DNA of 64,000 nucleotides from Sphaerodactylus townsendi (taxonomy: Eukaryota), in assembly GCF_021028975.2 (NCBI RefSeq), contig NC_059427.1, positions 78,616,001 through 78,680,000 on the forward strand. The letters run 5' to 3'. The first letter of the stretch is position 1. Every line of letters begins with the position of its first letter. The position numbers were made by a program, and so were the translations under genes. Under the pieces are notes generated by a model, which was not told the origin of the DNA, searched no databases, and worked only from the letters and a program-made list of their open reading frames with translations. Positions 34,320 to 59,270 of this stretch are shown here, in pieces.

Positions 34320-34583
34320 NNNNNNNNNNNNNNNNNNNNNNNNNNNNNNNNNNNNNNNNNNNNNNNNNNNNNNNNNNNNNNNNNNNNNNNNNNNNNNNNN
34401 NNNNNNNNNNNNNNNNNNNNNNNNNNNNNNNNNNNNNNNNNNNNNNNNNNNNNNNNNNNNNNNNNNNNNNNNNNNNNNNNNNNNNNNNNNNNNNNNNNNN
34501 NNNNNNNNNNNNNNNNNNNNNNNNNNNNNNNNNNNNNNNNNNNNNNNNNNNNNNNNNNNNNNNNNNNNNNNNNNNNNNNNNNN
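34320..34583. other. Assembly gap (264 N)
   Basis: Run of N. Confidence 1.
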
Positions 34584-49804: not shown

Positions 49805-52610
49805 AAATCCAGGTACCAAAGAGCAAAATTTAATGAAAGCCAAAACTCTTAAATATGGATTCTTGTTGAGAAAAATGTCAATGTCTTCATGGTTCTTCCC
49901 CACTCTTATTCTATATTTAAGAAAAGTGTAGTAAAAATGCATATTACAAGTTAACATTTCCCCTCTTTCTCTGCATCATTTTTTTCTTTTCCTCCTCCCA
50001 CCTTTCCATTCATCAAAAACATTTTAAAGATGAGTTTTATGTCTTATTATCACAGGCATTTGTCTTATCACAGAAGGCTCCTTCCCTAAACCCATCTAAC
50101 TGGCTGCATGAATTATCAGACAGGTCTTTTTGATTCTTTTGCCACCAAGGCAACAGTTTTTGTGTAGCTTATTTTATACTATTATGCACTGAAGGAAATC
50201 CCTGTTCCCTGCTCCCATTGCATTTTAAAGTGGAAAATAGGGAGGGGAGCTATGAAAGTTCTTGAGATTGCAAGAAGGATCAGATCTTCTTGGACACCCA
50301 AAAGATTTCTTCATCCGAAGCAGGATTGGTTTCTTTAGCCCTACACAGTATGAGCACATACACAAAACTAAAATAAAAAAATAATCAAAGGCAGACAATC
50401 TTTGTTTTAAAGTACAGAGAACAACAACTCAAAGAATTATTATTGAAGGCTGAAATTAGCATCTTGACTGATTGCTGGATGAAAGATGAGACAGAAAGGC
50501 TTCTGGTGGCACTGAAAGAAAACAAAGAGCCACTAGGCATGCTGTGCCCTCTGAAGGGGATCTGTAGTTTCTGTCTTGCCTGTCTTAATTAAGGTGCCAT
50601 CTTAAGACAAGTGCAAGAAGTTGATGGAACAATAAAGAGTTGAATGGTAAAACAGTTCATAGAGACCAATCGTCAATGGTTGATGGCACTTTTATATAAT
50701 AGCAACTCATATACGACAGATTATTTTAGAGCCAGCTGCCAGTTCCATTTATAAAGAAAGTTGCTTGAGGAAGGTCCTCACAATAGATCCATTTCTATTT
50801 GTAGCCTGTGTTGCCTTCTTGTCAAATCTTTTGCCTCCATTCTAAGTTGAAATCACCTATGTTACACATTATGTTACCCACAGATCTGAGAAATCAGATA
50901 CGACACATTTCTGTCACTTGGAGGAAGTTTTAGCCCCTTGAAAAGTCTGGAGTTACTATCCAATCATGGGCAAGTGGATTATGAGGACAAGGGTTTCAGG
51001 GAAGGGCAAGGCCTCCTCCAGACCATGGTGGAGTAGAAGACATTCCCTATTGTTTTTTTCTTCAAGGGAATGTTTTTCATTCAAATATTTCACTGTTTAT
51101 TGTGGTATCACATACCCACATACAAATGAAGCTCTTGTTTAGATGTAGACACTTACACACACATGACTGGGGAAATACTGCTAGCAGGTCCACTCTCTTG
51201 TGCTTTATGGATTTCAGTGTTTCATTGCAAGCTTGGGTTTTGGATCACAAAGTTTTTAATAGCAAGCAGGGTACCAGCTGGTGTGTTCTATGTGTTCCAC
51301 TTCCCCTCATGATGATAAATGAGATGAAAACCAAATTCGTTTGGCTTTTCTGCAAATCATATCACTGGCAAAAACTTGATTCTTGAATCCGCTGAAAGGA
51401 ATTTTTATCAGATGTGGAAGGCAGAATGAAGGTGAATGTTGATGTCATTCAGTGAAATCTTGAGTTTTTTCATAACAAATCTAATAATCCACAGATCTTT
51501 CACCTAAATCAGATGTGGCCTTACGGAACAAAATGTTCTCAAAACAGCCCCAATGTTTTTAAGTCTGTTTATTGGTTTATGGAGACCCATGGAGCGATCT
51601 GCAGACATTTTTCTGGGAAGGGGAAGGATTGTCTACTCAAAGGTCACAATGCCAAGGAAACCTTACTGAAATCGAGGAATGAGGAAATGGCTGGCAATTG
51701 CCTCTTCAATTTTAAGGAAGCAGACTGGGAGGATGATATGTAATATATGTTTTGCATTTATTTGGTTTCCCTATATGCAAAAGATGGCCACTGTTTTAAT
51801 TGGATGCTGACATTTCCATGATAACTTGCCAAGTCCATATTTTGTGGGCTGGCATGCCCCAAACTCGCAATACTTTTCACTCAAATAACCACTTCGGAGG
51901 TTGGGAATAAGGATCGCATTAGTTCTGCTTATCTGGGCTCTTTTTAGTCCAGATACAATTGTTGATCTCCATTTCCATAAAAGTCTTCCAATTCCTTTCT
52001 CCATGTGAGGCTTCTCTTTCAACTGTCTTTGAAGTCCTTCAATTAACAATGGAATGGAGAACTCTTTCGATAGCCTGGTTAGCCTTGTAGCAACAATTTT
52101 AACACAGTAGAGTTCTGTTGCGTCAAAGGAATTTTGCTTTGTTTTCCTTTCACTGTTAGTAGCATAGACATTTATGGTTTTCATCCCCAACTAAACCTGA
52201 TTTTAAACTGTTGAGCAGAGCAGGGCAGACATTACCCTGACATCACGGGAATTAGTAAGAAAAATATATATTGCACACACTAAGAACTTATTAACAACCA
52301 AGTTAAAAATAAAATGGCGCTGTCTTCCTCAGTGTTCCTGTAACCGTGTACTCAGGGATGTCTCCAAATTCTGTTCAGTTCGGTTGCCCTCTCCTTATTG
52401 CAGTACAGGTTGTACTTTCTTCTGCCTGTGGATTTACTGTAAAACAGAAACACACACGCATACACACACACAAAAGAAAATAGATCTGATTTCTGCTGAA
52501 GGATCCACCGAATTGTCCCTCTTCTTGAAGGTTTGCTTTGATTTGGTTTTGGCACTGGAGATGCTCAGGCCAGGGAGACCCTGCTCTCACCCAAGATCCA
52601 TCAAGGGCAA
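49805..52610 (-). other. GRIA1: Probable GRIA1 3' UTR (~2.8 kb)
   Basis: Repeat-poor stretch following the stop codon. Candidate ATTAAA signal at 49834-49829 followed by a U-rich tract; alternative AATAAA at 51101-51096. The 3' end is inferred. Confidence 0.6.
49829..49834 (-). terminator. Candidate GRIA1 polyadenylation signal (ATTAAA)
   Basis: Minus strand reads gctttcATTAAAttttgctctttggtacctgga followed by a U-rich tract. Confidence 0.45.
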
Positions 52611-52802
52611 TTATAATCCCGTTGCTCCCAGGGACATCCCAGAGCTGTGACCCATGCACGGAATCTCCTGCATGGATTTAGGGAAATCGTGGCTCACCAC
52701 CCGTCCGTTTTCTCCACTGCTGGTTCCCGCCGCGGCTGCTCGAGGAAGGGTTGATGTTCGTATGGCTTCATTGATAGATTGCTGTGGGATCAAACAAAAA
52801 CC
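52611..52802 (-). CDS. GRIA1: GluA1 terminal coding exon (long cytoplasmic tail ending in PDZ ligand ATGL)
   Basis: Acceptor ttgtctctcttaaaag|GGT. Translates [63 protein letters not shown], matching the GluA1 C-tail, in frame with the upstream exon. Confidence 0.98.
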
Positions 52803-53096
52803 CTTTTAAGAGAGACAAGGGGGTCTCCCCCTGTCCTTAGCAATGACTGAATACTCTTAATATACAACACTTTGTAACTTTCCCCTTCTATCTGCTGAAT
52901 GTTCTTGTGATCTTTCCTTACCCAGTCTGCTTGAACTTATTACTTTTAATTCAAGAGTCTCTAAATATCAAGTTTCTGTAAGTTCAGAACATATTCCTAA
53001 CTGCTCAGATAAATTTTGCGACAGAGTTTACTGTTTTATCTGTCAGGCCTAGGAGGTGCTCTACATAAGCTAGAGTATGTGTATCCATGTTGATCC

Positions 53097-53214
53097 TACA
53101 GAGGCTGGATGGCCATCTGTCAGGAGTACTTTGATTATGTGTTCCTGCATTACAGGGGGTTGGTCTTGATGGCCCTTGGGGTCTCTTCAAATTCTATTAT
53201 TATATAATTCTATG
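53097..53214 (+). mobile_element. CR1 3' tail fragment in GRIA1 last intron
   Basis: agaggctggatggccatctgtcagg...gggggttgg...gtctcttc...ttctatga. A similar piece lies at 55339-55453. Confidence 0.75.
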
Positions 53215-56766: not shown

Positions 56767-56901
56767 CTTCATCCGTTTTGATTCACTTCTGGACTTGTAA
56801 CAAAACTCGATTAAGGCAACCAGCATGGCTAGTCCAAGCCCACCGATGAGGATGTAGAAAACACCGGCCACATTGCTGAGGCTCAAAGCACTTGTTTTGT
56901 C
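56767..56901 (-). CDS. GRIA1: GluA1 AMPA receptor penultimate coding exon (pre-M4, M4 helix, proximal C-tail)
   Basis: Translates [51 protein letters not shown] and SRSESKRMK are GluA1-specific. Minus-strand acceptor cctttcatctctcttatag|GAC and donor AAG|gtggca; 135 bp, phase 0. Confidence 0.98.
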
Positions 56902-59126: not shown

Positions 59127-59270
59127 NNNNNNNNNNNNNNNNNNNNNNNNNNNNNNNNNNNNNNNNNNNNNNNNNNNNNNNNNNNNNNNNNNNNNNNNNN
59201 NNNNNNNNNNNNNNNNNNNNNNNNNNNNNNNNNNNNNNNNNNNNNNNNNNNNNNNNNNNNNNNNNNNNNN
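59127..59270. other. Assembly gap (144 N)
   Basis: Run of N. Confidence 1.

Follow-up and report, generated by a model that had tools for sequence, protein, structure and literature searches.

The window, a 64,000-nucleotide stretch of the Sphaerodactylus townsendi genome, contains the two final coding exons of GRIA1, both on the minus strand. The features are as follows.

52611..52802, minus strand: last coding exon of GRIA1, encoding the GluA1 cytoplasmic tail (63 amino acids plus stop), 100% identical to RefSeq S. townsendi GluA1
52614..52622, minus strand: terminal PDZ ligand (Thr-Gly-Leu)
52713..52733, minus strand: linker, residues 846-852, whose Thr and Ser residues lack a basic residue (Arg or Lys) at both -2 and -3
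52734..52736, minus strand: codon 845, GCC (Ala), which is Ser in mammals, amphibians, and other squamates
52740..52742, minus strand: Arg843 (CGA), the basic residue at -2 of site 845, kept
52749..52760, minus strand: Arg837-Thr838-Ser839-Thr840, basic-residue motifs left upstream of 845
56767..56901, minus strand: penultimate GRIA1 exon, M4 helix with C811, S814, S816, and S818, 100% identical to RefSeq S. townsendi GluA1

The tail exon starts at 52802 and is preceded by an AG acceptor, and the M4 exon (56901-56767) is followed by a GT donor. At this predicted splice the two exons join in frame, with the PDZ ligand at the end, as would be expected of a GluA1 orthologue. Among the best 120 of 632 matches, the named ones are glutamate receptor 1 and the others are unnamed products. 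The PDB matches of the gecko tail are GluA1, so that the long tail fits GluA1 rather than GluA2-4. Runs of N occur at 34320-34583 and 59127-59270, neither near the tail or the M4 exon. Within the last exon there is also a donor-like GTGAGC at 52697-52692 (minus strand). RefSeq gene models of isoform X3 from four geckos and Hemicordylus (P0124, P0127, P0132, P0134, and P0140) end exactly at GTGAGC, and an isoform ending at 52697-52692 would omit the distal tail and the PDZ ligand.

Residue numbers were counted from the C-terminus of the human record, which yields the usual S831, T840, and S845. The gecko codons after Arg843 are then Ala844 (GCA), Ala845 (GCC), Ala846 (GCG), Ala847 (GCG), and Gly848 (GGA), followed by Thr-Ser-Ser-Gly. 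At the GluA1 PKA/PKG phosphosite, the Ser/Thr acceptor is replaced by Ala and the Arg at -2 (R843) is present. The original prediction had placed this alanine codon at 52736-52734, two residues past the Arg, and both the minus-strand codons and the 100% identical RefSeq protein confirm it. The other regulatory residues that it listed as kept (C811, S818, S831, T840, S863, K868, C875, and the PDZ ligand) are all present. We take S863, K868, and C875 to follow rat numbering; each is one lower in human numbering.

The tail had also been described as having a short Gly/Ser linker that leaves the alignment locally ambiguous. The linker is short, but it is equally short in platypus and marsupials, and the long form results from an insertion in placentals, located after residue 847. 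Column 845 is gap-free in 24 of 24 aligned rows, from tilapia to seal, and lies two residues past an invariant Arg. Alignment ambiguity at 845 is thereby ruled out. The Glu reported at the S872 position (rat numbering; 52667-52665, minus strand) is indeed there, but it does not set this gecko apart, because it occurs in all 19 of the listed squamates whose tail is complete; other clades carry Ser, Thr, or Ala. Glu872 and the short linker, the latter being the general state, were therefore rejected as gecko novelties. The Glu itself could be a constitutive phosphomimic.

Residue 845 was surveyed in 155 vertebrate rows, with one row for each species or for each record identical across several species, taken from source listings that included the best 120 of 632 and the best 120 of 575 matches. 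Extra isoforms of counted species, unnamed records, and isoform records that lack the last exon (such as those from Anolis, Crotalus, Pantherophis, Terrapene, and Engystomops) were left out. Crocodilians are represented by one named row (Alligator sinensis), tuatara by one named row, and Sphaerodactylus by one species. Among the matches listed, Ser845 is present in 30/30 mammals (1/1 monotreme, 8/8 marsupials, and 21/21 placentals), 27/27 amphibians (21/21 frogs, 3/3 salamanders, and 3/3 caecilians), and 5/5 named teleost rows. It is also present in 19 of the 20 squamates listed (5/6 geckos and 14/14 other squamates). The sole squamate listed without it is Sphaerodactylus; Euleptes, a member of its family, carries the serine. 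Ala845 is found in 63/63 birds, including chicken NP_001001774, in 8/8 turtles, in Alligator sinensis, and in tuatara, which amounts to 73/73 rows among the matches listed.

The gecko change had been proposed as lineage-specific. This stands within squamates (1 of the 20 listed), but every row from birds, turtles, crocodilians, and tuatara shows the same state. The original prediction conceded that a change already described and widespread in reptiles would not be novel, and widespread it is. As far as sequences can tell, the main result is the clade-wide Ala845 pattern, and the gecko is a convergent recent case. Four unnamed fish-like GluA1 tails (P0331, P0334, P0335, and P0337), presumably from a second teleost paralogue, have no Arg-x-Ser, and their Gly-rich linkers are expanded; the site is therefore not universal among fish paralogues. 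A metagenome pattern scan gave one match (L001), a bird-type DNA with GCT, a GCN alanine codon, at 845. No squamate Ser845 codon was found in that scan.

Parsimony was applied to site 845 on the accepted tree, whose topology is established. The minimum is three changes, and two histories tie. One has separate losses in archelosaurs, tuatara, and Sphaerodactylus. The other has a loss in stem sauropsids, a regain in squamates, and a renewed loss in Sphaerodactylus. The Sphaerodactylidae node has Ser845 under both, and the gecko change is therefore recent and independent. Aligning GluA1 across reptiles, as had been suggested for dating the change, places it after the split from Euleptes, which has Ser845. 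The two proteins differ at 9 of 903 residues, 845 among the nine. The gecko shares Ala845 with chicken GluA1 (NP_001001774/CAA61681), other archelosaurs, and tuatara. However, those proteins have Pro844 where the gecko has Ala844, and turtles and alligator have Thr846. Shared descent would predict the Pro844-Ala845 pair, but the gecko carries Ala844 and sits within squamates that have Ser845. Because it keeps the squamate Ala844 and 63-residue tail, its loss is independent of that in archelosaurs and tuatara. We infer a one-base T-to-G change from Ser TCC to Ala GCC. Judged from these alignments, Ala845 in the gecko is real, correctly placed, and independent, yet convergent on the bird, turtle, crocodilian, and tuatara state.

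Our preferred reading, held with modest confidence, is that this is the normal GluA1 tail of Sphaerodactylus. Ser845 would have become Ala after the Euleptes split, likely by one base change, leaving the PKA/PKG acceptor gone and the receptor likely without direct PKA control at 845, as in birds, turtles, crocodilians, and tuatara. Ala takes no phosphate, and its presence would remove the acceptor that PKA/PKG phosphorylate in mammals. With direct PKA control at 845 lost, trafficking of the gecko receptor would rely on S818, S831, T840, and the PDZ ligand, and PKA would act via targets other than GluA1. Candidate PKA targets outside GluA1 are GluA4, TARPs, and L-type channels.

The mammalian PKA/PKG site at Ser845 and the gecko tail are alike in position, in Arg843, and in the flanking S831 and T840. 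They differ in that the gecko acceptor is Ala, residue 844 is Ala rather than Asn, and the placental linker insertion is absent. According to the available text of two mouse studies, Ser845 is needed for NMDAR-dependent LTD and homeostatic scaling-up; in S845A mice basal transmission and theta-burst LTP are normal, LTD is nearly absent, and scaling-up is impaired (PMC7119613, PMC12926376). The knock-in carries the identical substitution at the identical residue. Unlike it, the gecko change is natural, germline, and in a wild lineage that has had time for compensation, and it is known from sequence alone. The most likely account of the gecko change is a loss that was tolerated and went to fixation by drift, given that entire clades do without Ser845 and that basal transmission and theta-burst LTP persist in S845A mice. 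In animals with Ala845, synaptic tuning likely proceeds without this switch, on which some forms of plasticity in mice depend.

Squamate Ser845, in its Arg-Ala-Ser context, might instead be a non-working PKA site. The gecko change would then be neutral, and sauropsids as a whole would already lack PKA control of GluA1. The tied history with stem-sauropsid loss and squamate regain agrees with this, and a lone Arg at -2 is a weak PKA consensus. Linker residues 846-852 are invariant in 20/20 squamates among the matches listed. They are as invariant as 845, and conservation therefore does not mark out Ser845 as a phosphosite in use. We nevertheless consider a non-working site unlikely. Ser is kept in 19 of the 20 squamates listed though residue 844 varies between clades, and the mammalian site, likewise with only an Arg at -2, is a proven substrate in the available text of PMC7119613.

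PKA control could also have been kept through a shifted site. We scanned for Ser/Thr residues preceded at -2 or -3 by Arg or Lys; the gecko is missing the R843+2 site and has gained none. The scan found no substitute basic-residue motif in the downstream linker, where Thr-Ser-Ser has no basic residue in place. The claim that no Arg-x-Ser is left holds at 845, but R837-x-S839 persists upstream, as in placentals and birds. The gecko shares this motif and R837-x-x-T840 with placentals and chicken, and both could serve as alternative PKA acceptors. The candidates would be S839 (Arg at -2) or T840 (Arg at -3) in the gecko and in birds such as chicken, and Thr846 (Arg at -3) in turtles and crocodilians. 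Thr846 with this Arg occurs in Trachemys, alligator, and frogs; birds and tuatara have Ala846. A shifted site strikes us as distinctly unlikely. Placentals have S839 and T840 too, and S845A deficits appear nonetheless (PMC7119613, available text). Furthermore, tuatara has neither S839 nor Thr846, and the gecko has no newly arisen site.

Less probable still is that Ala845 belongs only to the individual sequenced or arose as an assembly error, although the sequence comes from one assembly only. As a check, 83 sampled words over 52300-53100 were sought in sequencing runs X1, X2, X3, and X4. Runs X1 and X2, which may be the source sample and not independent, contain all 83/83 words. Assuming random sampling, the chance that no sampled word covers a given base is ~0.03, so an assembly error is unlikely. 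Run X4, a second sample of the same species, contains 0.94 of the words (~5/83 missing), and run X3, from a related organism, contains 0.98 (1-2 missing). These two fractions leave room for polymorphism at codon 845. A mismatch there would cost 3.3 words on average, more than X3 lacks, but this is a weak test (P(<=2) = 0.34). Ala845 is probably fixed in the species. Loss under selection in Sphaerodactylus, for example with miniaturisation, is very improbable, as nothing beyond the importance of the site in mice speaks for it, 845 is one of nine differences from Euleptes, and large-bodied clades share Ala845.

The history with a regain admits a wider reading, which we regard as possible but rather doubtful. 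Ser845 would behave as an evolutionary toggle: the sauropsid ancestor lost it, squamates recovered it, and Sphaerodactylus lost it a second time. In birds, turtles, and crocodilians, LTD, homeostatic scaling, and neuromodulator-gated plasticity would then proceed without a direct GluA1 PKA site, a situation that would be as yet undescribed. If so, Sphaerodactylus and Euleptes would form a near-isogenic natural pair (9/903) for finding what replaces Ser845.

The phosphosite itself is already known. The gecko change is a variant at this site, most of the significance lies in the clade-wide pattern, and a functional effect is predicted. If all birds and turtles lack Ser845, plasticity models in chick, songbird, and pond turtle must rely on a different mechanism, and rodent pS845 antibodies should detect no genuine GluA1 signal there. 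The gecko contributes a recent loss of separate origin, against a background that is otherwise 99% identical. The significance is limited to a single residue that is visible in public sequences, including a chicken GluA1 record that is presumably decades old.

An earlier mention of the Ala845 pattern is quite possible. A literature search on S845 loss in birds and reptiles, whose coverage did not extend to primary chick and turtle GluA1 papers, found no description. In their available text, a chick imprinting review discusses only Ser831 and has no "845" (PMC4726915), a turtle glutamate review has no occurrence of "phosphoryl" (PMC9428285), and an evolutionary review of receptor palmitoylation lacks "845" by term count (PMC8634674).

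Other sites in the tail also vary between clades. Thr831 is found in most frogs and all three salamanders, and Thr818 in Trachemys (P0195-P0260, P0233, and P0282). Ala839 occurs in turtles, tuatara, platypus, marsupials, and amphibians. Thr846 of turtles, alligator, and frogs (P0233, P0109, and P0214) is a possible substitute site.
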